64,000 bases of DNA. Origin: Cyanidioschyzon merolae (lineage: Eukaryota). Below, in pieces: positions 31,801 through 56,855 of this stretch. Numbering within the stretch: the first letter of the stretch is position 1; each line of letters begins with the position of its first letter. The notes below the pieces were generated by a model that searched no databases, was not told the DNA's origin, and saw only the letters and a program-made list of their open reading frames with translations. Made by a program: the position numbers and the translations under genes. Location of the stretch: NCBI GenBank assembly GCA_000091205.1, contig AP006499.2. One strand, 5' to 3'.

Positions 31801-31836
31801 TGTCTAAGGCGCGCTGATCGCCACTACTGTCCACCG

Positions 31837-34802: not shown

Positions 34803-36043
34803 AGCACCCGCCGTAGCTCGGTTGCAAGGGACTCCACCCCCGCCCGGTCGACCGCTCGCCAATCGTCCGGCCGCATGCAGCGTCACTGGCGGACCCAAGT
34901 ACCAAACGCCCCGTGCGAAAGGCACAGCGCCATCGCCGATGGCCCGGGGGCCGCTGCGCCGGCGCACTGACACCCAAACAAGATGCGTCCCGCCTTTACG
35001 CTCCATGATTGATGAATCTAGCCTGACCTTCCCGGATGCGCGCATGCTCTGGCGAGCAACAGCGGTATACGCCGTCAGCTCCATCCGTGTGCCATCGCCA
35101 GCCGCAGCTTTCGCCGCTCGCGCGCGCACGCACGAGCATGGCTGCGGACGCACACGCACGCCATGCGCATCTCAGCTATCATAGGCACAGGGAATGAACG
35201 TCGCTGGTGCGGCCGCGCGCTACCATATCGTGCAGCCGCATTGCAAATCAAGTCGCACACGCATCACCCGATACATGCGACGTCTGGCGCCGCTGCACGC
35301 TGCCCACAAATCATCGCAACATGATCGGAACTTGCCAGCGCCGGTGAATCTGCATGCAGCGCGCCACAGTCCAGATATGAGTACGAAGCGGGACTTTCGC
35401 GCTCTGTATGGTCGATCCCAACTGTAGCGTACAGCACGTCAACTGGCGGTCCACAGAACGGCGCATCGATTCCGGCTTCGTTACTTTGCAAAACGCTACA
35501 AGCGTCTGCGCGGTTGAGTCGCTCCTGCTGCGCGGACGTTACTGCATATGCCCCTGTTGCGTCTTTCTGAGACTGCATAGTGTGTGCGTAGACGCACGCA
35601 GGCGCACATCGCGGGCGTTGTCCATCCGGTCGCTCTTCAGCATTGCATTTCAGTAGCATGTGCGCCGCACATCAAACATGAATCTATGCGTGCGCATCGA
35701 GCGCGGCTTCCTCGGAGCCCAGCTTCCGCTGCAACGGAACACGCCGCAGCTGTGGGCAGAGGCGCGCTCATCGCCAGTGATGAGCGTACATGTGTCGAGC
35801 TGTTATTCGAGCGCACACAAGGAGAACTTGCATGCCGAGAATTTTCGCTCAGGGTGCCCTGAGATGGTGCTCGTGTGGGGTCATCAGGCGGACCCAGCAG
35901 TTCCTCCGTTCCATCAAGAGCCGAGTGAATAGCGGAGACTACAAGCGCTACCGAGTGACCCATGAGGCATCGCATGCTCCAGGCGCAGACGCTAGCAGTC
36001 GGGGCGCGTGCAGCGCAAGTGTCATATCAGGAGAGATGGTTTC
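34803..36043. repeat. Inverted-repeat arm A (~1.24 kb), partner of 39800..41037
   Basis: Reverse-complement identity is seen through identical or near-identical ORF translations on opposite strands (e.g. 35637..35975- equals 39868..40206+; 34788..35159- equals 40684..41073+), with only a few substitutions. The boundaries were mapped by loss of complementarity. Confidence 0.8.
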
Positions 36044-36618: not shown

Positions 36619-38538
36619 CTAAAAAGCCGGCAAGAATGCCTTGTCGCGTGCCAGCGGATTTGCTCTGCCATCTTGGGGTCCATTTCTGAGCATCTGAAGA
36701 ATCAAGACGGATGATAAAATGAAACCGATGTGACGCACTCGGACGTGTGATGGCACTAATGATCGCACTTTCAGACGAGGACGATCGCGGTTTCTCAGAA
36801 ACACATTTTCACCAATGGTCACAAAACGATCGAGGAAAGAGATCCCGTTGGGAAGAATCAAATTACCCGCCGAATCCCGCGGACAAGACTCCGAGTTTTC
36901 GACTACACAGACAGGAATGAATATATCCCTTCGACCGGATACGCGATGTACTTCCTCTTGTGCAAGATGCATCCTTCTAGCAAGATTCTCTTCAAATGTG
37001 AGGCCCTCTGGAGGGAGCGCATACCCATGTGTGAAAACCAGTATGCATCGCTCCCATACTCCACCATCGAAGAGACTCTTCAGTTCCTCCAAAACTAGCC
37101 TGAAACAATGGGATCGGTACGAATCCAGTCGCTCTATAATGCAGACAATGTCGATTTCCAAACCGCGAAGCGCAGCTGCGACACTCTCGCATGTTCCAGC
37201 GCGGCTCCATTTCTTAGAATCCTCCCCAGCTTCATCGTAAAAATATTTTTCAGAGGAAGGGATCTCAATCAAACGCAGAGACATCCCTTCCTTTTCTACA
37301 GGATAAATCAGAACGTTTTCGTTCGGCGAAGGAACGAATTCAGTCTTGCGATTTGGATGCGCTCTTTGTTCCCTTTCACGTTCATACGATCGCTCTTCTA
37401 TTACTTCGAGCCCATGCTCTGGATCTCGTTCTAAAATCTCATCATCCGATAGTATGAGAGCCATGGTGTGGTTGGTTCGTGCGACAGGGCTTCCAAGAAT
37501 GCGGTTAATTGTGGCAGACTTTCCTGCACCGATCGTGCCAGCGAAAAGAATAGTGGCATCTCGAAATGGAGAATGCGCGCGAACGACGTCCACTAATTGA
37601 TTTACAGTGGCGCACCCTGGCCGCGAATCATTCCCAAAGCCGCGAATGATTTCCTCATAGTTCCTTCTTTGGAGACCGACTTGCTTCATGCAAGCTGTGA
37701 ATGCTTCCGAGTCCGTCTTTTCGGCGTAAGCACAAAGCACTTTGCACGCAAGGTGCAGATTTTTTCCTTCAATAACGTCTTCTGGCTCAAACAGTGCATT
37801 GGCATCGAGCCCCGCATTCCGTGCAGAATCCAGAAAGAGCTGAATGCACCGCCGCATGCTGTCCAAATTCCGTGCATCTCCAGAGCACGGAGCGTCTATT
37901 CCGGCAATATGCAAGAAAACGTTAGGGTCGCTGAGCACAGCCCGAAGCCCGTTTGAAGAAGATTCCGATGCGCCTGTTTTTCGTGCGATCCACAACAGGC
38001 AGAGCCTTTCCAAGGCTTTTTCAGTGGCATCTGGAATAGCTCCCCAAGGTTGCTCCCCACAGACCTCCGACAGCGAAGGCTTATCAGAAAGCGTAGGGCT
38101 GGGCCCCTGCTGCCAACTCGACCCAGACTCTTTGAGATCTTTGCTATATGGCGCTGGGCTTGTCACCACGAGTGCTGCGAGACGAGACAGGTTAAGCTCT
38201 TGCTTCACGTGTATACCCATGTTGTAAAGATGTCGCTCATCGGATATGAAGAATTCTCCGTCAGCTGCGTTTTCCGCTCCGTGTCCTTCAGATTCCGTGC
38301 CTTTTCGGGACTGGCTAAGCACCCCTGGAAGAAGATTACGCCGAAAGAGTTGGCGCCGACGTGACCGAGTTCGTCCTGTGGAAGGCCTCGAGCCTCTCGT
38401 GGTTTTATCCGAGTCGGCTGTGCGCCGGCCAGAGACGTCGCGCCTTTCAGCAGCATCATCACCGCGAGGCTCGACACGCTCTGCAAAATCCAGTCTGACT
38501 TGTTCTCTAGTCTGCGGAGAGGTAAAGCTCTCCGTCAT
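36619..38538 (-). CDS. Toc34/Toc159-family GTPase (chloroplast outer-envelope translocon receptor-like; AIG1-type G domain) with an N-terminal extension
   Basis: G1 motif FAGTIGAGKSATIN. Then ...IDIVCIIERLDSYRSHCFRLVLEELKSLFDGGVWERCILVFTHGYALPPEGLTFEENLARR..., which aligns closely with Toc34 (IDVLLYVDRLDAYRVDNLD..GKGIWNKAIVALTHAQFSPPDGLPYDEF.SKR). The annotated N-terminus (38507-38538) overlaps the TnpB-remnant tail, so the true start is probably an internal Met. Confidence 0.6.
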   Translation of the reverse strand: MTESFTSPQTREQVRLDFAERVEPRGDDAAERRDVSGRRTADSDKTTRGSRPSTGRTRSRRRQLFRRNLLPGVLSQSRKGTESEGHGAENAADGEFFISDERHLYNMGIHVKQELNLSRLAALVVTSPAPYSKDLKESGSSWQQGPSPTLSDKPSLSEVCGEQPWGAIPDATEKALERLCLLWIARKTGASESSSNGLRAVLSDPNVFLHIAGIDAPCSGDARNLDSMRRCIQLFLDSARNAGLDANALFEPEDVIEGKNLHLACKVLCAYAEKTDSEAFTACMKQVGLQRRNYEEIIRGFGNDSRPGCATVNQLVDVVRAHSPFRDATILFAGTIGAGKSATINRILGSPVARTNHTMALILSDDEILERDPEHGLEVIEERSYEREREQRAHPNRKTEFVPSPNENVLIYPVEKEGMSLRLIEIPSSEKYFYDEAGEDSKKWSRAGTCESVAAALRGLEIDIVCIIERLDSYRSHCFRLVLEELKSLFDGGVWERCILVFTHGYALPPEGLTFEENLARRMHLAQEEVHRVSGRRDIFIPVCVVENSESCPRDSAGNLILPNGISFLDRFVTIGENVFLRNRDRPRLKVRSLVPSHVRVRHIGFILSSVLILQMLRNGPQDGRANPLARDKAFLPAF

Positions 38539-38824
38539 TTACGGTGCCCTGGAGGTGTCGAGTCCTGCAACTATGCACCTGAGACGCAGCTGAACGAAGC
38601 CCAAACGTTCTGCAGAATCTGAGTAAATTAATACCGGCGTGCAGACGCATACCAACTTTTTTTGACCGTCTCCATGCTATCGGTTTCAACTTGTCATTGT
38701 ACAGCTCGATCCTGAGAGGTTGCCCCACAAAGTTGACTCTTGTCAGCTCCTTGGGTCTCATTTTCAGCACCGCACATTTTCTGATATTGATGATGGCATG
38801 GAAGTCTCGGTTCACGAACTCCAT
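38400..38824 (-). mobile_element. 3'-terminal remnant of a TnpB/Fanzor-like element, copy 4
   Basis: Minus-strand ORF MEFVNRDFHAIINIRKCAVLKMRPKELTRVNFVGQPLRIELYNDKLKPIAWRRSKKVGMRLH.. (RuvC-III plus a conserved tail). The downstream nucleotides ...agttgaaaccgatagcatggagacggtcaaaaaaagttggtatgcgtctgcacgc... match the tails of copies 1-3. Confidence 0.5.
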
Positions 38825-39799
38825 GCGTTTATTGCCTCTGGATCAACGCACTATTGCTAGAGTTCCTCGAACTCGTACCCACTGTCCCACTACAGTCTCG
38901 TCATCCTCCCGTTGGGCATACATCTTTTGCTCAGTTGGCTCCCCTATTTTTCTTCGTCTTCGTTATTTCCTCTTCTTCGCTGCATGGTTGGCGAGAACGA
39001 GATGTTCCGTTTATTACTGCAGTCATCGATGACGGCCCTCAAGGATTCGCAAATTCCAGATCCATAACATTCTCACAGATTTTTACTTTTGGAAAAGAAC
39101 GCACTTAGAACGTATTTACTGAAACCTGGGAAAAAGCATTTGCTTACGCTCATCTGCGGACGGAACACAGATGAGGTGCAAGCCTCGAAATGACGCGATC
39201 GCAAATTTGCACAGTCCATTCGGTTTGGAAAGTCTTGATTAGAAAGTCTTCTGCTCTACTAGAACGAATCCGGATATGCTTGGGAGGACGCTGAGTTTAT
39301 TAAAGTCAAAAGTGGCCAGAAGTGCCCCGTTTCTTCACGCGAAGCATGGACCGCAGAACTACTACAAAGGAAACCGCTGTCGTCGGCTGGGTCGACACAC
39401 GCGCAAGGGTGGGTACGTCGTAGACCACGCAAACAAGGTCCCTGACTTCAGAATACCGCAAATTCCAGAAGATTTTCCACTGAAACCATATGTTGCAGTT
39501 GGTTCGTAAAGGTTTCTGGGGCTACGTTTGGACACCTTTCGTCGTGGCGAGGGAAAAATCTGCAGGGAGTTTCAAATAACGCTGCAATATGGACGACTAT
39601 GATGAGAAGACGCTTCTTTCCCCAACTGAGGCGCAACGGTTTTTACACCACTGCCAATATGACGATTAAGGCAAGTACTTACCTCTGAGAGTCCTGATGC
39701 AACCCTGTCAAAAACATATAGCGCAAAAGCACGAATAAGGTCACGGTCCTTCTGTGAGTGGCAGTATTTCACAACGTTGAGTTTTACTCGAAGCAGCTG

Positions 39800-41037
39800 G
39801 AAACCCTCTCTCCTGATATGACACTTGCGCTGCACGCGCCCCGACTGCTAGCGTCTGCGCCTGGAGCATGCGATGCCTCATGGGTCACTCAGTAGCGCTT
39901 GTAGTCTCCGCTATTCACTCGGCTCTTGATGGAACGGAGGAACTGCTGGGTCCGCCTGATGACCCCACACGAGCACCATCTCAGGGCACCCTGAGCGAAA
40001 ATTCTCGGCATGCAAGTTCTCCTTGTGTGCGCTCGAATAACAGCTCGACACATGTACGCTCATCACTGGCGATGAGCGCGCCTCTGCCCACAGCTGCAGC
40101 GTGTTCCGTTGCAGCGGAAGCTGGGCTCCGAGGAAGCCGCGCTCGATGCGCACGCATAGATTCATGTTTGATGTGCGGCGCACATGCTACTGAAATGCAA
40201 TGCTGAAGAGCGACCGGATGGACAACGCCCGCGATGTGCGCCTGCGTGCGTCTACGCACACACTATGCAGTCTCAGAAAGACGCAACAGGGGCATATGCA
40301 GTAACGTCCGCGCAGCAGGAGCGACTCAACCGCGCAGACGCTTGTAGCGTTTTGTAAAGTAACGAAGCCGGTATCGATGCGCCGTTCTGTGGACCGCCAG
40401 TTGACGTGCTGTACGCTACAGTTGGGATCGACCATACAGAGCGCGAAAGTCCCGCTTCGTACTCATATCTGGACTGTGGCGCGCTGCATGCAGATTCACC
40501 GGCGCTGGCAAGTTCCGATCATGTTGCGATGATTTGTGGGCAGCGTGCAGCGGCGCCAGACGTCGCATGTATCGGGTGATGCGTGTGCGACTTGATTTGC
40601 AATGCGGCTGCACGATATGGTAGCGCGCGGCCGCACCAGCGACGTTCATTCCCTGTGCCTATGATAGCTGAGATGCGCATGGCGTGCGTGTGCGTCCGCA
40701 GCCATGCTCGTGCGTGCGCGCGCGAGCGGCGAAAGCTGCGGCTGGCGATGGCACACGGATGGAGCTGACGGCGTATACCGCTGTTGCTCGCCAGAGCATG
40801 CGCACATCCGGGAAGGTCACGCAAGATTCATCAATCATGGAGCGTAACGGCGGGACGCATCTTGTTTGGGTGTCAGTGCGCCGGCGCAGCGGCCCCCGGG
40901 CCATCGGCGATGGCGCTGTGCCTTTCGCACGGGGCGTTTGGTACTTGGGTCCGCCAGTGACGCTGCATGCGGCCGGACGATTGGCGAGCGGTCGACCGGG
41001 CGGGGGTGGAGTCCCTTGCAACCGAGCTACGGCGGGT
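39800..41037. repeat. Inverted-repeat arm B (~1.24 kb), partner of 34803..36043
   Basis: See arm A. Near-perfect reverse complement. Together the arms bracket a 3.76-kb unique core holding the Toc-family GTPase gene and the TnpB remnant. Confidence 0.8.
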
Positions 41038-42253
41038 GTGCTGTATTTAGTTTTCATGGGTCGGAGGAGGTAACCTTCGCGATGCCGCTCCATGCGTCGC
41101 GACCGTATTGGAGAGAGCCACATTGTACCAATTGGCATGATGAACTGACCCGTTTGCGTAGATGCAACTAGCATTGAAAGAAATCGCAGCACGACTTCAT
41201 GAAGGATCCGAATCACGAAAATCGATACCACAGATTAATTGAACTTCCTCCAGTGCGCATTGGCCTTCTACACGGAGAATGGAGTATACTACACCGACGT
41301 CGAACTGCGCGACAATCTTCCATCTATTCGTCTTCATAGTCCAATCGGATAGATTACACCCGGGGTCCGAGAAAGATCCCTCAATTTTTGTGCGGGGCGT
41401 CGAGTCCACTGCGTCCAGTTCATTCTGTTCAGGGATCGTCTCCCTTTAGCTACGGCACGCATGTCCAACGCTTCGTGCATGATTGCGAAAAGGGTCTCAT
41501 GGAGGCTGAGCCCCCGATAGACGAGACCCCAATCAGTTCCGGCCAAAATGGTCGCGAAGTATTGTTGCTACGCAGGTTGCCGCACCCTCTGGTGGGACGC
41601 CTACTGCCCGCCAGCGAACGCGAGCGCTCCTATCTAAAAAATAGACGTAAGCGCTAAAACGGTTTTCGATGTGTAAAAGGCTTAGAAACTCCGTGAAAAG
41701 TTTGTCCTTCCGTGAAGGTGTGTAAATCAGACTCCCAGCAGGCAGCAACTGTTTCTGAAAACCTACCAGAAGGCGATCAAGCAGCCTTTCATTTACTGTT
41801 AACTCATATATGGGAAGTCTTTTTTCTGCCTCAGTCAGAATTCCGCGCCATGTGTCTAGTGCCTGTTGAGAAAACGCACGAAAGCCCAAAAGAAGCCAGC
41901 TTTCCTGCTTCCCTCCACTGGTAAGGTATGCGCGAGAGTCCTTAACGACAGTGCTTTTCCCTGCAACTTCGAATGCGATTTCCGGAAAGAGCCGCGCTTC
42001 CTCCGTTCGGATAAGACTAGGCAACAAGAAACTGTCCTTTAGACCGCGGATAACCTTCGGCGACAACCTAGTCATGAAACCAGGACGCTACGAGGCGCAT
42101 ACAGACGATAGAAATTTTGCCCGCATTCTAGCCACACGCCGCTCGCTCGCCGAAATGCACTGCAGGCAGCTGCTAAATAGATGACAAACGCTTAAATGCG
42201 AAGCAAAACAGACGCTGCTACAATGATCCATCGACGGCTTCTCGGGGCATTCG

Positions 42254-44872
42254 TTATGGAAACTCATAGGCGACTTCCAAAAGAGCAAAATCACATCCCG
42301 GTGCCGCGCGATACAGAGCCAGCAGGCAAGCCATTGGTTTGTTACGAATAGCGGCGAGTCCCTTCTCACGTAGCGAGCCGCGCAAGCTTGCGCCGAAGCG
42401 ACCCAGAAATGCTGTGCGTTTGTTGTAAGTTTTGGCGATCCCTGACCCGAAAACAGTTCTTCCAGGGGTGATGACGACAGGGATCCAGCTATTGTTGTCA
42501 TTCAGAGCGCGAAGGTGCCCAATGTGAATCTCATCGAAGTAAACAGTAGCGAATGAGGATCCTGCTAGCCCTAAAGCCTTCGCTTCCTCGAGCTGAGCCT
42601 TCTCAGGTTTTGAGGTGGATCTGAAGCACGAAAGATATCCGTATACCAGAACCTCTCGTCTTTCTCGTAGAAAGATTTCCGACTGGACTGCTCTAAGTCG
42701 CTCAAACTCAATGCAAAGGTTTTCAATTTTCTCCTGGCCTCCATACAGTGCTGCTAATTGCTCTAGCGTGTCAGTGTATCGAAAGGTGCTATGCTGGATC
42801 CTTCCAAGTGCGAATGTTTGACGTATCTTGACAGATTTTTTCCCCTCCGAGGATTGAATCCATCGAGCTAATGCCAGTATACGACGAACAAGACGATCCT
42901 GCAGAATTACTTTCGGAATATTTTCAGGGAGGCTCGTGCCCTCCGTTCTTTTTTGCTGTTCTCTTACTCCATCTAGCAGGTACATTGAGGTCCATCGGGT
43001 CGAATGTACCTCCATGATGCTGACACCATCAAAAGGAGCATTGTACAGCTCTCGCTTTTCGAGGGATGTTAGCAGGATTGCCGCACCTGGAACGCAGATA
43101 GCATCAAATGCATCGCGTTGGGAGGTTTCATAAAGGCGAATGCAGACGTCTCGCGCTTCGGATCCATCGCGCGCCAAAATGATTCTATATTTCCTAAAAA
43201 TGTAGTAGTCATCTGATGCACTCAGTATTTGCGGTGCACTCGTCCGTTCTGCAGACCTGTACGTCCCGCGCTCTCGATACAGAGGTGACACATGTGTCAC
43301 AATGCATGCTAGAGAGAAATACGAGCGGTCGTCCCATGCATCCAGAGCGCTGGTAAGAATGCAGGGGTGGTAGAGTTCACCCGTTCGACCACCGCCAAGC
43401 TTTGCAATAGGTCCGAAATCAAGTAACTCCTCATAATTATCTGAAAGCTTCCGAATAATGCCCTGGGGCGATGATGCATTCAGGTGAATCTCGCCTCTGC
43501 GTACACGGTAATTCTCTATGATAAGGATGTCACCGAGTTGAATGTGATAAAAATATTTGGAACAAAGCGAATTCCACACGACAACAGTAGCAGAATCCGC
43601 ACCGTCACCTATCTCAAATTCGAATTTGAATGGCACTGACTGCCGCATGTCACTCTTTTTCGGCCATGGCATTAGGGACGTCTTTCTGAGGACGCGCCCG
43701 ATGATTGGTCGCTTCACGTCTCCCATCAGCGCCCTGGCGATGCGCACCGCTGCACTAGTGACTGATTTAATCGAAGCTGGGTCTTCGACACGCTCTACGT
43801 TGCTAGGGTCTCGCAATCTGGAATCGACAGGTAAGGCATCAAACGCTCCAGGACCAAGATAACTCTTTCTCGACGATGCCAAAGGGACATTTGCAGCAGT
43901 CTCAAGCGGGGTGGATGACGTTGTCCAAGCGCATGTCAGGGGAACGTCTATCCAAAAATCCTCGTGGGGTCGACGTAGTACGAGACAGTCATACACAACG
44001 ATTACTCGAGGCGGGTAGAGTCCGCGCAATTCGTTGAAACGAACTGACCATTTTCTTATTTCTAAAATGCTCCCTCGATCTAGGTCACCGGACTGGACGA
44101 TTGAATTCAAATGTGGGTGTAGGCAAAAGCGTGTTTTCGTCTGCTCAACCGGATTGCAGACGGTAATGTCATACGCATCTGCATCCATCTCAGGGATTTC
44201 ATCTTTTGTGCCGTTGACCGTAAACCAATAGGCTTGATCCCGGATATAATGCCGGACGCATAGAACTAGGAACACGATTGAACCGCGGCATTCTTCCCCA
44301 GGAGCACACTCGTGGAGCTTTTCCGTGCCAGCAGTCGTGAATATTTGGTCTCGTTCCTTTGGCTCTGAAGAGCCGCTCTGAACCAGGCTTGAAGAGGCTG
44401 AAACCTGACCTGTGTTGGACTTTGCAAGCTTTTGATTTGCGACTTTTAACGTGCCCTCCCTCGGCCGCTTGCGCTGGTTTCCACGGTTTCCAGTCTGTCG
44501 CTTGCTGCGTGAGTCCCGCGAGTCAGACCCTTCGACCTGTACTGTACGATTCTCTACAGCCTTCTGCAGCGGCTTTGCTCGACTCTTTTGCAGCTCTTCG
44601 TCTTGCCTCCTTTGGAAAATAGGTTTCACATAGTCATCAGCCTTGGTGTCGCCGAAGCGTCCACTTTTACGAGGCATTAACCGTTCTGTACGAGAACGTT
44701 TGTTGTTTTCTCGGATACACTCGCAATCAGAAATTTGCGCCACATTCAAATTGGGCGCGTGCTGGACAGATGGTGCATCATAAGCACAGGATGTATCCAG
44801 CTGCGCGCAGCTTCCGCCTATATCAGTCAAAGATAGAATAGACCCCGTGAGGAAAGTCGGACGTACTCGCAC
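42254..44872 (-). CDS. Large hypothetical protein with possible OB-fold-like segments (RMI1/RPA/CST-like?); function unassigned
   Basis: 872-aa uninterrupted ORF with a basic/acidic low-complexity N-terminal third. The C-terminal part (...SFATVYFDEIHIGHLRALNDNNSWIPVVITPGRTVFG...) looks like a nucleic-acid-binding OB-fold, but I cannot place it. The first ~22 codons (44805-44872) lie inside a dispersed repeat, so the true start is probably an internal Met (~44677). Confidence 0.4.
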   Translation of the reverse strand: MRVRPTFLTGSILSLTDIGGSCAQLDTSCAYDAPSVQHAPNLNVAQISDCECIRENNKRSRTERLMPRKSGRFGDTKADDYVKPIFQRRQDEELQKSRAKPLQKAVENRTVQVEGSDSRDSRSKRQTGNRGNQRKRPREGTLKVANQKLAKSNTGQVSASSSLVQSGSSEPKERDQIFTTAGTEKLHECAPGEECRGSIVFLVLCVRHYIRDQAYWFTVNGTKDEIPEMDADAYDITVCNPVEQTKTRFCLHPHLNSIVQSGDLDRGSILEIRKWSVRFNELRGLYPPRVIVVYDCLVLRRPHEDFWIDVPLTCAWTTSSTPLETAANVPLASSRKSYLGPGAFDALPVDSRLRDPSNVERVEDPASIKSVTSAAVRIARALMGDVKRPIIGRVLRKTSLMPWPKKSDMRQSVPFKFEFEIGDGADSATVVVWNSLCSKYFYHIQLGDILIIENYRVRRGEIHLNASSPQGIIRKLSDNYEELLDFGPIAKLGGGRTGELYHPCILTSALDAWDDRSYFSLACIVTHVSPLYRERGTYRSAERTSAPQILSASDDYYIFRKYRIILARDGSEARDVCIRLYETSQRDAFDAICVPGAAILLTSLEKRELYNAPFDGVSIMEVHSTRWTSMYLLDGVREQQKRTEGTSLPENIPKVILQDRLVRRILALARWIQSSEGKKSVKIRQTFALGRIQHSTFRYTDTLEQLAALYGGQEKIENLCIEFERLRAVQSEIFLRERREVLVYGYLSCFRSTSKPEKAQLEEAKALGLAGSSFATVYFDEIHIGHLRALNDNNSWIPVVITPGRTVFGSGIAKTYNKRTAFLGRFGASLRGSLREKGLAAIRNKPMACLLALYRAAPGCDFALLEVAYEFP

Positions 44873-47635
44873 TATATTCTGGACCTATTTTGCACGACCA
44901 TCAGCACAAGTCATTGCAGTTTGCACCGCGACCGCTTCCTTCTCCTTTCCCGTATCTCCGACTTTCAATACGCTGGCGTCTCCTAGCCCTCCAGCTTCGA
45001 TGTCAGCAGGCGAAGGATGCCGATGGCTGCGTTCATTCGAACCCAGAGTTTCCTGCTTCCAGCCCTCATCGACGTACTTCATGCAAAGGCGGAAGTTGTG
45101 ATCTGCGCTTCTTTTAGCATTTTCATCCTTTTTGTCCACAACTCCGGTGCACCCTTCGCAGCGAGGACACTTGCCCGTTGTCCGGTGCCGCCATACGTCC
45201 ATCGCACGTCTTGCTCCGAGTGCCGCCCTGTGGCGCATGCCTGCTTGCAGTGTCGCTCGGTACACGCCCTCGACGGGTGCAGAGCGCTCCGCTCCATGCG
45301 CTCTTCAGTTTCTGTGCCCAGCGCCATACCCTGCGATCACAGGCTCGGGCTGGGCGATCCCCGCGGCAAGCACCCTCACTGCTGGGCGCGTAAACGCTCG
45401 CTGCTCGATTCGAGTACTCGGAATCCGCTCCCTCGCACGCTCTTCGTTTTTCGCGTACGCTTCCCATCGAAGCTGCCGACGAGCATCACGCGACTCGAGG
45501 TGCCGTGCCAGCTCATGAGTATTGTGCGCGCAGGTTCCATCCACTTGCGACGATGCGGGTCAGCCATCTGCGACTCCCTTCGTCTCCGGTCGCTCGCTCG
45601 CTCGCTTGCGTGTTCTTCTATCCCCATACTCGTTCGCTTCCGCTTCAGCGAAGATGGCAGGCGCGGGAGGAGAAGTCACGACTGTGGGCGTAACTCGGAC
45701 GTTTCCGATCCCGTGCCCCGGGACGGGGTGTCGGTTTCCACATGGGCGTCGGGCTTCGCCTCGGGTCTCACGGAGGCGCTGGTGCAACGCTTCGCTCTCC
45801 TTGGGCTCCTGCCGTTGCTAAGTGCACTGGATTGCAGGTTCACGAGGCCACGCATCTGTACAGCTTGCTGCTCATCGTCGCCGTGTTTCCTGTTCTGAGC
45901 AGGGGTGCGTTGGAGCTCTGATGGGGCCTTGAGGCATGTAGGGCGCTCACGACTGATAGCGGTGGATGCTGCCAGGCCATCGGTCTCGAACGAGGACACC
46001 ACGCCTCCTCGACTTTATGTGAGCGTTCTGTTTCTATCTGTTCCCTGCCTGTCGCATCTCTCTTTAGCGTCGTTCGCTTTTCGTTCCCCCAGCGGTTCAT
46101 GAGTGTCTCCGAAGTTTCGGGCGAAATTTGCGTAGTACGCTTCATGTACTCTATGCTGTCGATGGATACCTCCTCTTCTTCGATGTGCTCCTTGGCCTCC
46201 ATAGGACGTTTCCATGCCCTAATCCCTCGTGCGTGGGCGCCCACTTCGCAGCGAGGCGAAAAAGCCGCGAACCGGGGCGCGCGTACGAGCGACCTATAAA
46301 TGCGTTTACAGCAAGGCGAAAATCCATTCCATTCAGGGGCTCTGGAACAGTTCCCGAGGTGCAGAGGCTGTTTCACTCGCTCGGGTAGGCACTCGCAGGC
46401 TGCAGGTCTATAGTCTCCTCGACATGTTCGTCTTCCAGGATACTCAACGGAGGCTCACGCGCTCTGTATATCCGCCCAGCATATTCAAGTCGGCGAAGCG
46501 CCCGTCATGAAGAGCTCGTCCATGCCGTCCAGGCTGGTATCTGAGTCGTCATCCGCACGTATCCACGTCATCGAATCCTTCACGCGCCATGGGAATGAAT
46601 GCTGGCATGATCCAGGGTCGCGCGGCGTAGTTTTCCGCCCATATACACCTTTGAGTTATCCAGGCTGATTTGGGTCGCGAAGCGAATGCTGGCCTCGAAA
46701 TGCGCAACGTCGTTCGGCTATGGAGCCAAAGTGCCCGCGACGTCGATGAAAGCACAGTGCAGGTGAGGTGTGTCCCGACTACGCTTCGAGACAGTGACGG
46801 CATGAAAGGCCATCGATGCCAACGGTGCATCTACGAAGTTGTTCGGTTTCTCAGGGACCCCGATGCACTGGACGTACACGGTCCTAGGCAGGAGGTAAGC
46901 GCGCCACTGACGCATGCTGCAAAGAAGCGCATGTTTGCGGACGCGGAATCTGATATCCGGCGGGTGCGGGTGCATTTCGAAGTATCCCTTGCCGACAGTG
47001 GTGCCGTAGAATACCTCATACAAACAGCGAAGGAGGGAGTTTCCGAGATCGTATCCCGTGAGATGTAGCGCACTGCTTATTTGGGATGTGGTTTCGTTGA
47101 TGGTTGGAAAGCGAGAATATTTTGTGTTTCAAACGGAATCGATTATATGAGGTGAGGATTTGAACATACTTTCGGTATGAGCTCTTGAAGAAGTATTCGC
47201 ACGAAAACTTCCAACTTTTGCGTCGTCAACCGAGCGTAGCGGCCTGGTGCGCCCACGAGTAGCCTTGAAACATGGAGATCGGAAGCGTGCAGAATGCCTG
47301 ACTTGAGCGTGCAACGCGTAACTAAAGGAAAAGAGTTCAGGCTTCCTTGTACGAATTGCATCATGATATCGGCTATTTTAGGCAACGGTATGTGAGGATA
47401 TCTCGAATCACCTTGATGCTGGTGATGTAACGAATCCCTTCGGTGCAAAGTCGAGGGAGCCACTTTGAAGAGTCGACCGAGAATCCTAGAACGATGCATG
47501 AGTCCTGAGGCCCTCATTGCTGGACTATGAATACTCGGGTCCTGCATCTGAAAATGAGTTCGGGTGAAAAATCGAAATCGAGGAACACAGGCAGCAGCTC
47601 CGTGTTCTACTTCACTCCGACCCGGGTGCCGACTC
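44805..47635. repeat. Unclassified ~2.8-kb GC-rich dispersed repeat, copy 1 (full length)
   Basis: Identical ORF-track translations recur at 50.6-52.0 kb and 60.1-62.9 kb (e.g. the 293-aa ORF at 45017/50774/60270). End points were mapped where the copies diverge. There is no long conserved ORF and no recognisable transposase, RT or LTR/TIR structure. Confidence 0.75.
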
Positions 47636-47858
47636 CGGCGATGCATCGCTGTGACGGCCAGCGGGCCCGCTGAGCTGCTTGCCCGGCGGCGGCAAACGGA
47701 CACGCTGTTGAGTGCACTCGGGGCACACGTTGATCTCGCGCCGGCGTCTATGCGACGCGTTTGAATAGGAACAAACAACAGCAATTTGCTCAACGAACAT
47801 AGTTCTGTGCCAAAGCTTTCCTGGGGAAGGCAGCTATCGAATATGCACAACTTTTAAT

Positions 47859-49118
47859 ATGCCGCAGTACGGAGCTCAAAATTGTTTTCTTCTGCGGGAG
47901 CTTTTCAACCATGTGGGGGATGGAGGATCCTTTTGGCAAAGACAAGCTCTCGTGCTGGTATTCGTGTGCCTCGCGGCGTTTTTGAATTCCATCACAGTCA
48001 TACTTCATTTCGTTGGCCAGAACTGGATGGCTCGTTGCTTGCAGTTCCATCTCGCAAAACAGGTTGTGAGGGCTCAGAGGAGGGCCGCGCAAGACAGAGC
48101 TTTTCGCTTAGGCAGCACGGTTGGACACACCGGCACCGGGGGCACACCTGAGTTTCTGTGCGCTTGCAAAGGCTGTAGGAAACTGAGCTCTGTGCTGAAC
48201 CCACAACAACGGCAAGCACTTGAGGCGAGCAGAGTTGTTAGAGTGAGGAAGCTTCTCGGTCAGCAAGGACTGCACGCTGAGGCCGCGAACAGCTCACAAT
48301 GGTGCTCTGACCTAACAATCATGCGCTATCTTGACTCGTACGGCTCTTGCCCTGCTCTCGCGGCGAAATATTTAGCCGCTACCATTAAGTGGAGGATCCA
48401 AAATTCTGTCCATGAGCTTACTGTCACTGAGTTTACTGAGGAGCTCAGAAAAGGTGTCGTTTCTTTCGGTGGGTTTGATTCGCAGTCACGACCGGTTTTC
48501 ATCGTCCGGTTCGTACCTGGTTTCAGCTTGAGACTTTTAATTTTCATGCTTGAAGTTGGTGAAAGCATCATTCGTAACTCTATGGAGCCTGATGTGCTGC
48601 GCAAGGATGCGCCAAGCGCATCAGCCACTCCAGGTGTCTGGCAAAGGATATACCGTTCAATGTTTCGGGGTATGAAACGGGTAGAATCTGACCGCAAGGT
48701 GCAAAATCGGGATCGATGGGTCTGGATCGTGGAATGGGGGAGCGTTCAGAGAGAATGCACCCGGGAAGCTTGCACGCAATGCACCCCTTCCGAAGACAGC
48801 CCTGTCCCTACAAAATACGCCGGCGGTGTCTCCGCATCGGAGCTTATAGGCGCCTTCCGAATATGTAATGAGCACTACCCGAACCGCTTGCATGCTGCAT
48901 ACGTCCTTGGAGCACCGGAACCTATCGTATCGCTGTTCAGAATCTTGGCAAAGAAGTCTACGAAGCGGAAGGTGCGATTTGTGCGACTAAGAGACGGATG
49001 TGATAGGGGTTCGCTTAGCGAATACGGTCCAATATGGCGCCGGCCCTGGGCTGCTACGGATTTTATTCAGCTGATCAACTATATTGATGGATCACTTGCC
49101 GTACAGAAGAGCAAATAA
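47859..49118 (+). CDS. Sec14/CRAL-TRIO-domain lipid-transfer protein
   Basis: CRAL-TRIO N-terminal helix bundle (...QWCSDLTIMRYLDSYGSCPALAAKYLAATIKWRI...) followed by ...GGFDSQSRPVFIVRF... and ...LGAPEPIVSLFRILAKKSTKRKVRFV..., matching the Sec14 core blocks (g.D..GRPV ... iiNaP..f...w...kp.l...T..Ki.f). The first ~100 aa may not be real; the start is uncertain. Confidence 0.55.
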   Translation: MPQYGAQNCFLLRELFNHVGDGGSFWQRQALVLVFVCLAAFLNSITVILHFVGQNWMARCLQFHLAKQVVRAQRRAAQDRAFRLGSTVGHTGTGGTPEFLCACKGCRKLSSVLNPQQRQALEASRVVRVRKLLGQQGLHAEAANSSQWCSDLTIMRYLDSYGSCPALAAKYLAATIKWRIQNSVHELTVTEFTEELRKGVVSFGGFDSQSRPVFIVRFVPGFSLRLLIFMLEVGESIIRNSMEPDVLRKDAPSASATPGVWQRIYRSMFRGMKRVESDRKVQNRDRWVWIVEWGSVQRECTREACTQCTPSEDSPVPTKYAGGVSASELIGAFRICNEHYPNRLHAAYVLGAPEPIVSLFRILAKKSTKRKVRFVRLRDGCDRGSLSEYGPIWRRPWAATDFIQLINYIDGSLAVQKSK

Positions 49119-49674
49119 GGCAGTCCATATACAATTTACAGCTCGAGTGCTTCGCCTAAGCATTCGATATCGCGAATTGATCAGAATTTCTTCTGTTAGT
49201 TATGATGCGGCGGTCGGCTTTGTGCGTGCAAAACCCAAACAATGGAACAATGGTGACTGTTTTCTACGCGTTGCAGCCATCCGTTCCCACGTGCGACTCG
49301 GTTTCAGGACCTTCGGATCAGTACCTGAGCTCGCCACTTATTCGAATACTTTTCATGCTATTGGACGAAGCAGATCACCTCCGCGAAAGTTGACACCGCA
49401 TGAGACTTATTTCGTGGACGCGATGTCCAGAAGGCATGCTTAAAGAGCGGCTTGGATGCCTTGACGAGGTGCAGTTCGCCATCTGGCATTTAGGAGAAAA
49501 TGGCCGTACGAGCAAGGGCAGCAGAATCTGCGAGCATTCTAAAGGAAGAATATATGAAGCATCATCTCGAAGATGGCATGGCAGAATTATCTCATCTTTT
49601 ACCACCGTCAAATACTATTCCCCAAGCTTCTAAAATCCTCCGAAGCGTACGTCTCTTACAGTCCCTTTGCCCCT

Positions 49675-50319
49675 TCACTGTAATGGTTGAAAGTTCGTTA
49701 TCTGCTCGAAAGGCATCTTCCCGTTCAAGAACTCACCATGGATGATGCCCGCAAAGCCGAGCATGGCAAGTCGCCCGTTATTCACTTCCCGATCCCGCAT
49801 GGCCTTGTCGTTCGGCAAGTTGAGGGGATTGAAGCCCAGCTCACCAGGCTTCCGCCCTTTCCATTCCATATCGGAATAGAGCACCTTGCCACGGTGGAGC
49901 AGGAACTCAAGAAACCCGATGAATGCTAAGATCTGAATCATGGCCCCAGACTTGACGAAATAGTCATGGGCTGGTCCAGCGAGTTTAGGAGCCCCCGCGA
50001 AGAACGGAAACTGGTAAAACTCGGTTACGAAGAAGTGCAGGCAAGCGAGCATTGCGACGCGCCCGTTCTTAATCTCGCCCTCTTGAAGCCAGTTAACGTC
50101 GAACGCATCAGAGAAGCGAAGCGGGTCAAAACCACGATATCCCGGCATATCAGGCGACAGGTTAGGCGGTTTCGAAAGGAACGGTAGCGCCGGCGACTGC
50201 TCCATTTTTAGAGTAGCATAACCCGAAGCATGTCTCGAACGGATAGCGCTGGTGCCAGTTGCCTTGGATACCGTATTGGCGCGCTGAACAAGTGGAGCGA
50301 AACTCACGAAAGCGTACAT
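49675..50319 (-). CDS. LHC: Light-harvesting complex protein (LHC superfamily; red-lineage Lhcr/FCP-like chlorophyll-binding protein) with N-terminal transit-type presequence
   Basis: Both LHC helix motifs are present: PGYRGFDPLRFSD...EIKNGRVAMLACLHFFV (helix 1) and GFNPLNLPND...REVNNGRLAMLGFAGIIHGEF (helix 3). ~214 aa, three predicted membrane helices. Confidence 0.85.
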   Translation of the reverse strand: MYAFVSFAPLVQRANTVSKATGTSAIRSRHASGYATLKMEQSPALPFLSKPPNLSPDMPGYRGFDPLRFSDAFDVNWLQEGEIKNGRVAMLACLHFFVTEFYQFPFFAGAPKLAGPAHDYFVKSGAMIQILAFIGFLEFLLHRGKVLYSDMEWKGRKPGELGFNPLNLPNDKAMRDREVNNGRLAMLGFAGIIHGEFLNGKMPFEQITNFQPLQ

Positions 50320-50562
50320 TATCCAACAGTTGCCTCTGTCGAGAAAGAACGATCACCACACAACCCGAGGGCTTCTAGCGAGAATCTCCGGGCATTTTAC
50401 AGCGCACATGGAGCTGTTGCCGATCGCGGGAGCTCTGCGCCTGCACGCCGCTGCTGTGAGCTCGACGCTCGAAAAGCGATCGTGCCTTCCGAGGCGTCGC
50501 GCGTCACCACAAAATCGGTGGGTGCGCTCGAGCCAGCAACCTCGCCGATGCTGCAGCGGGCG

Positions 50563-51950
50563 CGCAGCTTCCGCCTATATCAGTCAAAGATAGAATAGAC
50601 CCCGTGAGGAAAGTCGGACGTACTCGCACTATATTCTGGACCTATTTTGCACGACCATCAGCACAAGTCATTGCAGTTTGCACCGCGACCGCTTCCTTCT
50701 CCTTTCCCGTATCTCCGACTTTCAATACGCTGGCGTCTCCTAGCCCTCCAGCTTCGATGTCAGCAGGCGAAGGATGCCGATGGCTGCGTTCATTCGAACC
50801 CAGAGTTTCCTGCTTCCAGCCCTCATCGACGTACTTCATGCAAAGGCGGAAGTTGTGATCTGCGCTTCTTTTAGCATTTTCATCCTTTTTGTCCACAACT
50901 CCGGTGCACCCTTCGCAGCGAGGACACTTGCCCGTTGTCCGGTGCCGCCATACGTCCATCGCACGTCTTGCTCCGAGTGCCGCCCTGTGGCGCATGCCTG
51001 CTTGCAGTGTCGCTCGGTACACGCCCTCGACGGGTGCAGAGCGCTCCGCTCCATGCGCTCTTCAGTTTCTGTGCCCAGCGCCATACCCTGCGATCACAGG
51101 CTCGGGCTGGGCGATCCCCGCGGCAAGCACCCTCACTGCTGGGCGCGTAAACGCTCGCTGCTCGATTCGAGTACTCGGAATCCGCTCCCTCGCACGCTCT
51201 TCGTTTTTCGCGTACGCTTCCCATCGAAGCTGCCGACGAGCATCACGCGACTCGAGGTGCCGTGCCAGCTCATGAGTATTGTGCGCGCAGGTTCCATCCA
51301 CTTGCGACGATGCGGGTCAGCCATCTGCGACTCCCTTCGTCTCCGGTCGCTCGCTCGCTCGCTTGCGTGTTCTTCTATCCCCATACTCGTTCGCTTCCGC
51401 TTCAGCGAAGATGGCAGGCGCGGGAGGAGAAGTCACGACTGTGGGCGTAACTCGGACGTTTCCGATCCCGTGCCCCGGGACGGGGTGTCGGTTTCCACAT
51501 GGGCGTCGGGCTTCGCCTCGGGTCTCACGGAGGCGCTGGTGCAACGCTTCGCTCTCCTTGGGCTCCTGCCGTTGCTGAGTGCACTGGATTGCAGGTTCAC
51601 GAGGCCACGCATCTGTACAGCTTGCTGCTCATCGTCGCCGTGTTTCCTGTTCTGAGCAGGGGTGCGTTGGAGCTCTGATGGGGCCTTGAGGCATGTAGGG
51701 CGCTCACGACTGATAGCGGTGGATGCTGCCAGGCCATCGGTCTCGAACGAGGACACCACGCCTCCTCGACTTTATGTGAGCGTTCTGTTTCTATCTGTTC
51801 CCTGCCTGTCGCATCTCTCTTTAGCGTCGTTCGCTTTTCGTTCCCCCAGCGGTTCATGAGTGTCTCCGAAGTTTCGGGCGAAATTTGCGTAGTACGCTTC
51901 ATGTACTCTATGCTGTCGATGGATACCTCCTCTTCTTCGATGTGCTCCTT
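50563..51950. repeat. Dispersed repeat, copy 2 (3'-truncated, ~1.39 kb)
   Basis: Shares the same 5' boundary (including ~70 bp gcgcagcttccgcctatatcagtcaaagatagaatagaccccgtgaggaaagtcg) with copy 1. Identity ends at ...gatgtgctcctt | gttctaacgc. Confidence 0.75.
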
Positions 51951-52155
51951 GTTCTAACGCGGCCTCAAAACCTTTTTCTTGATCGCGGGACACCTACTTA
52001 GCTGGAACATTGTATGCAAAATCGCTCATGTTTGTTAATACAGAGACCCCGGAGGCACATTCACATGCACGTTCGGGCCCACATTCTCATTCGAAAAAAC
52101 TAACATACAAGTAAGTTCCACAATGCCAAATCTGGCGTGGTTTATGGCGGTACAA

Positions 52156-53922: not shown

Positions 53923-54029
53923 GGTCAGCTAAACCCGTCTCCAGTAAAGCAAGGGAAACCAGCTGTGCACGCACGCCTTTTATCGAGGGACTGCCGTTTT
54001 CGAAATCGCGTTGTATGGATCGCTAACTG

Positions 54030-55393
54030 CGCCCATGCAGGAGTGATTTGGAACTGGTCCCACGTAATTTACTCGGTCGAACACTCTAGTCTTTCAGCCT
54101 CTTCCGTCCGTCATTAACTTCAGCCTTTGCGAGCAGTTTCTGCGTATGTTTCCTTTCCTTTTCCCGTACCTCCGGCTTTAAGTGTGCCGGTACCTCACTT
54201 CCATCCAGCTCCGTTCGAAGCAGTCGAAGGATGGTAATAGTGGCCTTAGGGTCCCGAGTTCATTGCCTACGGTTGCTTTCTACGCATTTCATGCACAGAC
54301 GGTAGTTGCGGCCTGCGCGTCACTTCCCATTTTTATTTTCTATGCATACAGCCTACGTGTGCCCTTCGCTGCGGTGAGACTCGGCCCGGTTCAGTTGTTC
54401 ACATATTTCTACAATGTCCCGTCCTCCGCGGGCACCCCTGTGGCTCGAGGTAGCTTGCTATATCGCTCAGTATATGCCTTTGACCCGTACAGAGGTCTTG
54501 TATCGATGCCCTCCTCGGTTTTTCGCGCGCGGTGCCGTATCCTACGATCATGGGCTTCTTCTGGACGGTTTTCTCAGCGAACATGCTGAAGGCTGCATGC
54601 ACGTGCGAACCTTGTTCCATTTGATAAAAGATTTCTTGTATGCGTGAATGCCCTTGATGGTGCACGCACCGGTAGGTTAATCCCGCATGGAGAAGTCTAG
54701 AAATTCCGATCCGAGTGCGCTTCCTCTGTGGAGAGCGGTGACGCAGACGCCACAGGGAGCGATCGTTGTCATGACTGAAGACGGAGTCCAAAAACATTCT
54801 CCAAGCGAACAGACGACTCAAGAGCCACTCGGAGCGCATCCCTAGAAGGTACCATGCTCCTGCAGAGTCTTATTTAATCGACGGCCGCTAAAAGAGGTAG
54901 ACCAGTTCGTCGAACAAAATCGACTGTTGAACTTGGCAAGTTAGGTCAACTTTCTGAACGACTTTGTGAACATGTCGTTCATGGACGACGTAGAGCCTAT
55001 TTTCTCGTCAATTCATAGGCACGAATTACCGCGACAATGAGTTGCCTTGAAGCAGAGAGATCCGCAACATGAAGAACGCGGGATATGAAAATGTTACAAG
55101 AAAAGAAAGGAAAATACCATGGGTGTGGCAGTATTAATTGGAAACGGTGCCGGCCATTGTACGAACGCTCGTTCCACGGCACCGCGAATCATCCTGATTC
55201 CGGTGATGCGTTTAACTCCGGCAGCGAAACGTCGATGTAAACTTTCCGAAAATACGACCAAGCACCCTGAACTAAGAATGAAACAGTCAAGCCTTATTGC
55301 GACACCTGAGAGAGTCGAGGCTGAACGACTGAAAACCTGGGGGAAGATCATAGCACAAGTATAGAGCAAACCATTCAGTGGTGCACTTAATGC
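54030..55393. repeat. Inverted-repeat arm (~1.36 kb), partner of 56856..58225
   Basis: ORF translations are mirrored on opposite strands (54182..54589+ equals 57661..58068-; 54399..54839- equals 57411..57851+; 55119..55364+ equals 56886..57131-), with one or two substitutions. Confidence 0.8.
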
Positions 55394-56855
55394 TTGCGCA
55401 TATGGTTACTGTGCACGGGATAATAGTATGGAGAGATCTCTTCTATACATCATCAATATGCTGTGTGGGAGGAAGGAATTCATATTCCTACCGCGTAAAA
55501 ACTCGTGCATTTCTATTCGCGTTCGGACAGTAACGTCTTCTAGTCACTGTCTGCGTCACCTTCGAAGACAAAAAAGCTTTGCTCGCAAAACTGACATTTT
55601 TCCGGAATATTTTTACAACGCCCGCAAATAATCGCTAATCCTACTCTATAACCGAATTGTTTAAATAACGGGTACCGGGAAAGATCTGGTTGTTCTACAA
55701 ATTGTGCACTGAACGTTCTGCGCGTGATGCATTTTACTTCTATAGAAAATTGAATTTTCAACACCGAAACCGCTTATTGCGCGCAACCTAAATCGGCGCA
55801 GCGGATTGAGTTTTGATTTACTGCTTGGAAGCTAACTGTTCTATGCTGAATATTCTCTGCGATACGGCAATTCTTTGATCACTTAGTAGACGTCGTTCTA
55901 CTTTTAACATATTCTAACTCTTTTGGGGTTGGCGTGTTCAATTTCGCCTGGCCCGTTCTAGCTGGGGCTGTCTAAAAAGACCAGTTGTCTCTTGTCGTGC
56001 GTTCCATTGCTGCCCGAATGCCATTTCATATTTATTGGTTCAAACCCAAAAAAACTGTCTGACTCTGCTCCGTTGTATCAAGCGAGCCACTTCAATGGGT
56101 CAGAGGTTGTTGAGAACGTCGTATTCTTTCAACCATTAACACAGTTTCAGAAGACGACCGAAGGTTTGCTGGCTGGGACAAGATTTTGCGAAAATTTGCA
56201 GTGCAGCAAATCGGGGATCGATTATTCTTAACAAGTAGAAATGAGATCAAGCTCGAAGAATCAATGAAAATGTGTTTATTCTGCCGTAGGTCGCTCGTTT
56301 TCATCCTTCTGTGCACCCATTATTGTTGGATGTTGTTGCGCTTGAGATGAAGACCCTTTCATAGCTCTCCTAGAATAGAAGTTCATTAGAAATGAAAACT
56401 GCACGATTCAGAAATAAGCTACAGATTCAGGAGTATCTGTTTTGATTCATTCTATTCTCTTCAATTTTTGCTGCCCAAAAAATGCATGTCCAGAGCCCCG
56501 ACGATTCTAGCTAAGCCCTATCTTTCCAGTTTTGCGAACCAGAGTAGTTTTCGACACTAGACATCAAATATTCGGCGTAGAGCGAGGCCGTTTATGATTT
56601 TGTAGCAGAAGAGAGCAAAGCATTCAATTCACGCGTGGTATCTCAGATCAAATGCAGAGTCTCAATCATGACCGTGCCATTTCCATGGCTTCATTTTAGT
56701 GGTGTATCTTCAGGATGTTTTCTGCAGCCGCTGACCGCAGGAAACCACAGTTTCATCGTACACAGACGCTAATTCACCTTGATGAGAGGCTATGGCAGGC
56801 ATATTGCGATGCAGGCGGATGCTGCGACCACAGCACTTCTTTGTACTTCAGTGTC

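Follow-up and report, generated by a model that had tools for sequence, protein, structure and literature searches.

A decayed Fanzor1-like element on chromosome 17 of Cyanidioschyzon merolae, with near-identical copies probably homogenised by gene conversion

What kind of element is a 2.8-kb unit that occurs three times, almost without difference, within 18 kb of the Cyanidioschyzon merolae 10D genome, and how have its copies come to be so alike? The unit lies in a 64-kb stretch of chromosome 17 (64,000 nucleotides of contig AP006499.2; this whole stretch is referred to as the window, and positions within the unit are those of copy 1), where an earlier note made from the letters of the sequence had found that it fits no repeat class. 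The unit can nevertheless be classified, as its minus strand very probably carries, in sense orientation, a pseudogenised Fanzor1 (TnpB-like) element of C. merolae. Fanzor1 proteins are eukaryotic homologues of TnpB, that is, omega-RNA-guided RuvC nucleases carried by transposons. The process that homogenised the copies is likely to have been gene conversion and not transposition, and we regard the combined statement, a Fanzor1 relic with copies homogenised by conversion, as moderately probable.

The unit is assigned to Fanzor1 because motifs of this group occur on it in colinear order and because hidden Markov model (HMM) and profile statistics point the same way. Seven Fanzor1 motifs were found on the minus strand of the unit, colinear and mostly in one frame (Table 1). 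The motif of the Fanzor1/TnpB superfamily has been given as D-X(125,275)-[TS]-[TS]-X-X-[C4 zinc finger]-X(5,50)-RD (PMC3627910), and in the family to which the unit belongs we found both the [TS]-[TS]-X-X stretch with a C4 zinc finger and an RD in the RDxNAAxNI context. For comparison we used the CMe-1 protein and the consensus ends (5' 980 nt, 3' 159 nt) of the C. merolae family CMe-1A, taken from the supplement of PMC3627910. The segment 45317-45472 matches CMe-1 in frame and colinearly (tblastn, E = 0.016) and is also supported by hmmsearch and hhalign; it holds the Fanzor1-type core 'kQRAF...VVxyGxG', which replaces the classic RuvC-II ExL segment and is present in the unit as EQRAF and VIAGYGAG. 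The zinc ribbon pattern, [TS][TS]xxCxxC...FRxCxxC, reads TTGK-CPRC...(21 aa)...LCMKY in the unit, with three of the four cysteines kept and the fourth changed to tyrosine. The Cys-rich peptide that the earlier note had suggested as a piece of a spliced gene is this zinc ribbon, and it belongs to a series of motifs colinear with a single Fanzor1 open reading frame (ORF).

An HMM built from seven Fanzor1 sequences detected the unit peptide at an E-value of 2.2e-5, as compared to 0.22 for the best among 1000 shuffles. When a profile of the unit and three paralogues from the window was aligned to Fanzor1 using hhalign, a score of 70.2 was obtained (probability 96.6 %, E-value 6.8e-10), while the best of 60 column-shuffled controls reached 16.2; against Fanzor2, for which the profile consists of only two sequences, the same family profile scored 15.9, which is the level of the shuffled controls. 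The Pfam family PF07282 (TnpB/Cas12f TNB zinc-ribbon domain) matched the single-frame paralogue peptide 8654-8878 with an E-value of 0.003, below the gathering score, and it matched the accepted Fanzor1 CMe-1 more weakly than this (E = 0.52).

A functional Fanzor is expected to have an intact ORF of ~600-950 aa with its catalytic residues, and the unit falls short on both counts. No ORF is intact: each sense frame contains 16-19 stops, the longest open stretch is 204 aa and there is at least one frameshift. In the RuvC-I region, the position aligned with GADPGN reads VNLQSS in the unit, where no Asp is recognisable, with FETDGLA present upstream. In the RuvC-III region, the unit reads VRMNAAIGIL past the frameshift, such that the catalytic RD has become RM and the Asp is lost. 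The RD motif is kept in the family but has degenerated in the unit, the paralogues reading TRDPKATITIL (inverted-pair arm), GFDTAINIL (28055-29335 member) and NQDLDAVIQI (8530-9905 member). Similarly, the zinc ribbon of paralogue 8654-8878 reads TAAK-CIYC...ICFNC with all four cysteines kept, and the paralogue in an arm of the inverted pair keeps CMKC. With a broken ORF, without one zinc-ligand Cys and the RuvC-III Asp, and with no recognisable RuvC-I Asp, the copies of the unit are unable to produce a nuclease; they are relics of selfish DNA. The absence of a transposase-like ORF, stated earlier, is thus correct for an intact ORF but not for a broken one of Fanzor1/TnpB-like type. As far as can be judged from the sequence, the unit would be a passive relic, shuffled by the recombination machinery of the host.

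In the sense direction, the former element would have consisted of a 5' leader of ~470 nt (47621-47150), an ORF of ~2.2 kb (47150-44890) and a short 3' end, and the central 1.6 kb of the unit would correspond, on colinearity and size, to the variable N-terminal half of Fanzor1. The string 'CAFIDVAGT' (~46740) was considered as RuvC-I and rejected, because colinearity with CMe-1 places RuvC-I near 45770-45800. Codon-usage scoring is too weak in the C. merolae genome to guide the choice of strand. No codon-position periodicity was detected among the family members, as expected for copies under neutral decay. At the 3' end, the single-sequence fold of the unit (z = 0.10) gave no support for a conserved omega-RNA-like structure; in the consensus fold of five sequences the covariation term was unfavourable (+5.48), with seven pairs showing compensatory changes. 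Searches beyond Fanzor1 yielded little. The ORFs of the unit had no match in Pfam, a sequence search of the PDB using the conceptual translation of the N-terminal and central parts returned nothing at E-values up to 10, and an exhaustive HMMER search with the central peptide gave one spurious repetitive protein only. In a collection of 5.8 billion proteins, queried with the minus-strand conceptual peptide, a plus-strand 132-aa ORF and the profile of four paralogues, the only matches were ORFs called on this element. Scans of the window for tRNA and Rfam families had no match.

When the window was searched with the unit by tblastn and sensitive blastn, four short relatives were found, bringing the family to seven members in the window. 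The short relatives are colinear with one another, and identity is about 55-59 % both among them and with the unit. Their alignments to the unit include both of its ends, and relative to it they have one internal gap in common. Because four such diverged relatives have both ends in common with the unit, we read its boundaries as element termini and not as arbitrary duplication breakpoints. The 1.3-kb forms are internal-deletion derivatives retaining both ends, and the family is old. Deletion derivatives with both ends are the usual anatomy of non-autonomous elements. The description of the unit as a dispersed repeat holds for this old family at about 55-60 % identity, but not for the near-identical form, which among the metagenome contigs is found at this locus only.

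The three copies themselves are even closer to each other than the >98 % given in the earlier note, which had placed them correctly to within 2-14 nt. Self-BLASTN aligned 44858-47621 with 60111-62874 (copies 1 and 3; 2764 nt, 99.86 % identity, four mismatches, 0 gaps) and 44803-46194 with 50560-51951 (copies 1 and 2; 1392 nt, 99.93 %, one mismatch, no gaps), and only four sites vary among the three copies, three being private to copy 3 and one to copy 1. All three share the same orientation, and copies 1 and 2 stand 5757 bp apart as direct repeats. The earlier observations that copies 1 and 2 share one junction (44803/50560) and that the full-length copies end on the same nucleotide (47621/62874, copies 1 and 3) are confirmed, with the qualification that family-level similarity of copy 1 may extend ~15-20 nt further left of 44803. 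Copy 2 extends only to unit position 46194, with 1.4 kb missing at the sense 5' end; it probably lacks the last ~18 nt at the 3' end as well, and looks like an internal fragment.

Copy 3 had been described as starting 70 bp later than the others. The offset was found to be 55 nt and is not a truncation, as these positions (60056-60110) hold a diverged terminus homologous to 44803-44857. The two are ~64 % identical, and the best ungapped window of 36 nt has 23/36 identities, a value reached by 0 of 3000 shuffles (p<3e-4); weaker tests of the same 55 nt were a local alignment to other family termini, underpowered under harsh scoring, and a pooled global comparison with p~0.02. The true flanks beyond the copies show no similarity. 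Since 2764 nt at 99.86 % identity lie directly beside 55 homologous nt at ~64 %, copy 3 is a mosaic with its conversion boundary at 60110/60111.

Searches for terminal and tandem repeats bear out that the unit has no long terminal repeats (LTRs), no terminal inverted repeats (TIRs) and no tail: no direct or inverted repeats of at least 14 nt pair its two ends, and neither tandem repeats nor a tail were found in it. The unit ends were also checked for target-site duplications (TSDs), as the earlier note had proposed, and at the junctions examined in the window there were none, nor was there a shared target motif or a pair of Helitron ends (5'-TC...CTRR-3' with hairpin). The candidate classes LTR retrotransposon, TIR DNA transposon, Helitron and poly-A retroposon were rejected for a unit with no terminal repeats, TSDs, Helitron ends or A-rich tail, and no Helitron, Replitron or IS605-like ends were seen at its junctions. 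Replitrons have been reported to be absent from red algae (PMC10288648).

Metagenomes from wild relatives provide an independent view of the locus. We recovered 23 contigs through an ORF of the unit or a 24-mer just inside its left end, and all of them map to this locus. They are 99.8 % identical to the window, reproduce all copies with their own flanks and break exactly at the repeat boundaries, with the junctions at 47621 (copy 1, right), 50560 and 51951 (copy 2) and 62874 (copy 3, right) all represented. Because independent contigs reproduce both copies and junctions, the arrangement is not an assembly artefact, and from the contigs and the window the near-identical 2.8-kb form appears to be restricted to this locus. 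At unit positions 47273/47468/47528, the wild contigs carry C/G/C both in the context of the copy 1 flank and in that of the copy 3 flank, while 10D has T/A/T in both copies; position 47528 is phased with the flank because it lies 93 nt from unique sequence. Such strain-specific alleles in both full copies are a signature of concerted evolution.

Gene conversion is favoured over a burst of transposition because of the restriction to one locus, the mosaic copy 3, the shared alleles and the fragmentary copy 2. Old copies, linked and in the same orientation, would have been homogenised by recombination at the DNA level, with ectopic conversion between copies 1 and 3, and copy 2 would be an internal fragment made or overwritten by the same recombination. 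The near-identity had earlier been ascribed to recent amplification or gene conversion; recent homogenisation stands, with conversion as the favoured route, but a genome-wide burst does not fit the mosaic copy and the shared alleles. Concerted evolution by ectopic gene conversion occurs, for example, in yeast Ty or delta elements and in duplicated gene pairs. As in those cases, paralogues within a strain are closer here than orthologues between strains, and identity switches sharply from 99.9 % to ~64 %; unlike those cases, one end of the tract is the terminus of an element, and the history of donor and recipient cannot be reconstructed from the window.

Several points weigh against the combined account of a Fanzor1 relic homogenised by conversion. 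The assignment to Fanzor is drawn from the decayed 3' half, has no match in a curated library at the gathering threshold, and in two of the four family peptides the frames were joined by hand with the motifs known beforehand. The central 1.6 kb (~45415-47020) has no homologue in 1.84 billion proteins, in Pfam or in the PDB. The stretch of identity shared by copies 1 and 3 ends precisely at the 5' terminus, as end-defined transposition predicts, and the left boundary of copy 2, at or within ~20 nt of the family terminus, also looks end-defined. The restriction to this locus is drawn from the window and the contigs, and the full 10D genome could hold other near-identical copies. The contigs with the copy 1 context and those with the copy 3 context come from different samples, and as assemblers can collapse repeats, the argument from shared alleles is strong only for 47528.

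The main rival is recent copy-and-paste, in which an unknown transposase or the resident non-LTR reverse transcriptases acted in trans on a non-autonomous Fanzor-bearing element, which inserted three times nearby, copy 2 being truncated at its sense 5' end and copy 3 arising with a template switch at its 3' end. Such a course would explain why copies 1 and 3 end precisely alike at the family terminus and why copy 2 has the sense 3' end without the 5' part, a pattern like that of long interspersed nuclear elements or of rolling-circle elements; the two-ended 1.3-kb deletion derivatives imply past mobilisation in trans, and repeats of this kind are transcribed in a genome with three intact reverse transcriptase (RT) ORFs (PMC1955436). 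We consider it unlikely, however, as no junction shows TSDs, a tail or a shared target motif and no metagenome contig places a copy beyond this locus. The copies and their junctions are older than the split of 10D and the wild strains, yet the paralogues share strain-specific alleles, which transposition leaves unexplained, and the ~64 % identical terminus of copy 3 calls for another parental sequence. Segmental or tandem duplication of plain chromosomal DNA needs no mobile element and takes the 5757-bp spacing as the remnant of a tandem duplication with later deletions. The direct orientation of copies 1 and 2 at this spacing, a 5757-bp cycle that assemblers close in three metagenomes, the apparent truncation of copy 2 at both ends and two more young inverted duplications in the window would all suit it. 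It is nonetheless improbable: the ends of the unit are those of four old, independently placed family members, and because of this coincidence the duplicated block is an element and not an arbitrary segment; moreover, no flanking DNA was co-duplicated at 47621/62874, and past copy 2 there is no repeat of the 4.4 kb that separate it from copy 1.

Two further explanations deserve little credence. A multi-copy spliced host gene, of which the Cys-rich peptide is one exon, might be suspected from several short minus-strand ORFs with mildly gene-like codon usage, but it is highly implausible where only 26 C. merolae genes have introns (PMC1955436, PMC5405695), where the motifs are colinear with one uninterrupted Fanzor1 ORF and split by stops and frameshifts rather than introns, where catalytic residues are lost, and where no protein homologue is found beyond ORFs called on the element. 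Near-identical repeats are a classic source of mis-assembly, and some metagenome paths here are ambiguous (L014, L021), but an artefact of the reference assembly is scarcely credible when independent short-read assemblies from >15 samples give each copy with its unique flank and break at the repeat boundaries. A more adventurous version of homogenisation, which we rate as a long shot, is that the unit represents a second, uncatalogued and deeply diverged Fanzor1 lineage whose linked relics were homogenised through recurrent breaks at element ends, repaired from a paralogue; such breaks could come from a still-active Fanzor nuclease of intact CMe-1 copies. If true, this would be the footprint of TnpB-style homing or retention in a eukaryotic genome, with a tract starting exactly at the 5' terminus as its signature.

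Table 1. Copies, relatives, Fanzor1 motifs and spanned junctions of the 2.8-kb unit (window positions)
Feature	Position	Strand	Basis or remark
Copy 1, full-length 2.8-kb unit (2819 bp)	44803-47621	minus (sense)	self-BLASTN, junctions, termini matching diverged family members
Copy 2, 1392-nt fragment, sense 3' half	50560-51951	minus	self-BLASTN, junctions, wild-strain contigs
Copy 3, 2764 nt, terminal nucleotide as in copy 1	60111-62874	minus	self-BLASTN
Copy 3, own 3' terminus, 55 nt, diverged	60056-60110	minus	~64 % identical homologue of 44803-44857
FETDGLA, 'xTDGvA' motif preceding RuvC-I	45970-45990	minus	tblastn with CMe-1 aa 379-455
LRWEAYAK...EQRAF	45392-45472	minus	compare CMe-1 HWEALWEEYTK...KQRAF
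VIAGYGAG	45317-45340	minus	compare CMe-1 VVAYGAG
Zinc ribbon, first half, MDVWRHRTTGKCPRCEGC	45149-45202	minus	motif reading
Zinc ribbon, second half, NFRLCMKY	45074-45097	minus	motif reading
RuvC-III remnant, VRMNAAIGILRLL	45004-45042	minus	other frame (frameshift)
Short diverged member, ~1.3 kb	8530-9905	minus	without unit positions ~45415-47020
Short diverged member	28055-29335	plus (opposite orientation)	abuts CMe-1A copy
Short member, left arm of inverted pair	54028-55394	minus	1367 nt
Short member, right arm of inverted pair	56856-58222	plus	1367 nt
Copy 2 left junction, spanned	50560		contigs L001, L006, L019, L023
Copy 2 right junction, spanned	51951/51952		contig L021; L001/L006 end exactly at 51951

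Among known elements, the closest comparison is with CMe-1A itself, a Fanzor1 family of C. merolae of ~3 kb, without TIRs, with undeterminable TSDs and otherwise unclassified (Bao & Jurka 2013, PMC3627910). Like the unit, it belongs to the same host and size class (3169-bp consensus as compared to 2819 bp), has no TIRs and undeterminable TSDs, and is filled for the most part by a single Fanzor1 ORF between a long 5' leader and a short 3' tail; its copies are old and diverged, and short non-autonomous relatives stand beside the long form. The homology between the two is seen only at the level of motifs and profiles, and the short forms here keep both ends, unlike TE-N2_CMe, which is only the 5' 635 bp of CMe-1A. 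Members of CMe-1A are recognised by nucleotide similarity to the consensus (copies are ~80 % identical) or by clear identity to the CMe-1 protein. An identification of the unit as CMe-1A or TE-N2_CMe was rejected, as blastn found none of the CMe-1A ends in the unit and tblastn with CMe-1 gave E=2.4, while a true copy in the window (29531-31804) was matched by CMe-1 with an E-value of about 0.

This true CMe-1A copy is nearly full-length (29407-31842, plus strand) and 65-81 % identical to CMe-1 in amino acids; it is split over at least three frames and is thus a pseudogene as well, is 5'-truncated at consensus position ~786 and begins ~70 bp past the 3' end of the short member 28055-29335, head to tail. 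More Fanzor1 fragments were detected with CMe-1 at 7359-7643 (plus), 10555-11265 (minus), 19599-19793 (minus) and 38639-38878 (minus), of which 10555-11265, with only 31 % identity across aa 463-700, possibly belongs to a third, diverged lineage. The window is thus a cluster of Fanzor relics between ordinary genes.

A set of 253 interspersed repeats has been described in C. merolae, with a mean length of 3.2 kb and in each a truncated ORF that weakly resembles WSV486 of white spot syndrome virus (WSSV) (Nozaki et al. 2007, PMC1955436); they were later named "WSV repeats" (Mikulski et al. 2017, PMC5405695). They account for ~5 % of the genome, give rise to transcripts and frequently carry H3K27me3 (PMC1955436, PMC5405695). 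One Fanzor1 is recorded in WSSV (PMC3627910), and WSV486 is presumably that protein. Size and truncated Fanzor-like ORF, compared by published description, fit the unit, whose family we infer to be among these WSV repeats. With bacterial TnpB elements of the IS200/IS605 type and with active Fanzor, the unit shares a gene for a RuvC and zinc-ribbon nuclease on the 3' side and the lack of TIRs and TSDs (PMC10432273). In active Fanzor/TnpB systems the end of the transposon, on its 3' side, encodes the guide RNA and is the source of its transcript (Saito et al. 2023, PMC10432273), whereas in the unit the gene is dead, no TnpA-like transposase accompanies it and no conserved 3' RNA structure is shown.

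The surroundings of the copies are ordinary. Flanking ORFs match the C. merolae 10D proteins CMQ144C, CMQ146C, Lhcr1 and a CRAL-TRIO protein exactly, and the remaining large ORFs of the window are host genes such as Sin3, a CLC channel, a pentatricopeptide repeat protein and a RADX-like protein. Copies do adjoin host genes, as had been pointed out earlier: copy 2 lies 240 bp upstream of the start codon of the light-harvesting complex gene Lhcr1 (49675-50319). Gene callers annotate on the unit the 132-aa plus-strand ORF at 46670-47068, antisense to the Fanzor remnant. Nearly all listed variants in its 18-member 90 % cluster have it at full length (one is 122 aa), and its codon usage is host-like; in the 5.8-billion-protein collection it has no homologue outside this locus, and it is probably a chance ORF.

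The two short members at 54028-55394 and 56856-58222 are 99.8 % identical and lie as inverted arms on either side of a 1461-bp spacer, a further case of young local duplication or conversion. In the locus-tag numbering, CMQ145 is missing at this place; this is compatible with annotated features there other than coding sequences, and is no proof of them. A second inverted pair, 34805-36043 and 39800-41038 (1239 nt, 99.3 % identical, GC-rich), contains no recognisable ORF, resembles neither the unit nor the CMe-1A ends and brackets an AIG1/CH-domain ORF (36619-38538). Metagenome contig L023 has its spacer in the opposite orientation, either by flip-flop inversion or by assembly ambiguity.

Some features of the metagenome contigs may also be recorded. 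Differences between 10D and the wild strains are concentrated in the 5' leader of the unit (47273-47528), with three fixed in ~350 nt; the compared unique sequence within 46072-51951 has ~3 in ~3 kb. Circular-looking contigs occur in several metagenomes (L001-L003 and L006-L008, 5880 bp; L004, 5843 bp). The 5880-bp contigs are circular permutations of the same 5757-bp cycle (44803-50559) with an overlap of 123 nt; most simply they represent a de Bruijn graph cycle through copies 1 and 2 and are no evidence of an episome, though an extrachromosomal circle or a variable tandem array could also lie behind them. In L014 (JGI 3300053687), position 62964, which is 90 bp beyond copy 3, is joined to unit position 45531 with a 2-nt microhomology (contig positions 1639-1640). 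The breakpoint falls in GCGCGCAGGTTCC, a near-repeat of the GCGCGCAGCTTCC that begins copies 1 and 2 at 44803, and the join is possibly a structural variant, or else arose from chimeric assembly.

Reports of repeats in C. merolae that carry truncated WSV486/Fanzor-like ORFs date back to 2007 and 2013 (PMC1955436, PMC3627910), and the findings on this unit do not overturn current understanding. The sequences suggest a second, deeply diverged Fanzor1 lineage in C. merolae, a modest addition to the one Fanzor family that Bao & Jurka give for the species (PMC3627910). Identification as Fanzor1 removes one "unclassified repeat" and explains its odd anatomy, as Fanzor1-only elements are known without TIRs, LTRs, tails or obvious TSDs. 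The content of transposable elements in C. merolae is famously tiny. The results suggest that this species harbours two or more Fanzor1 lineages, very divergent from each other and accompanied in each case by short non-autonomous derivatives, and their recognition may aid the curation of the "WSV repeats". The mosaic copy with its shared private alleles is a small, clean and unsurprising example of conversion keeping dead transposon copies identical, and it cautions that the identity of copies alone can mislead the dating of transposable element activity.

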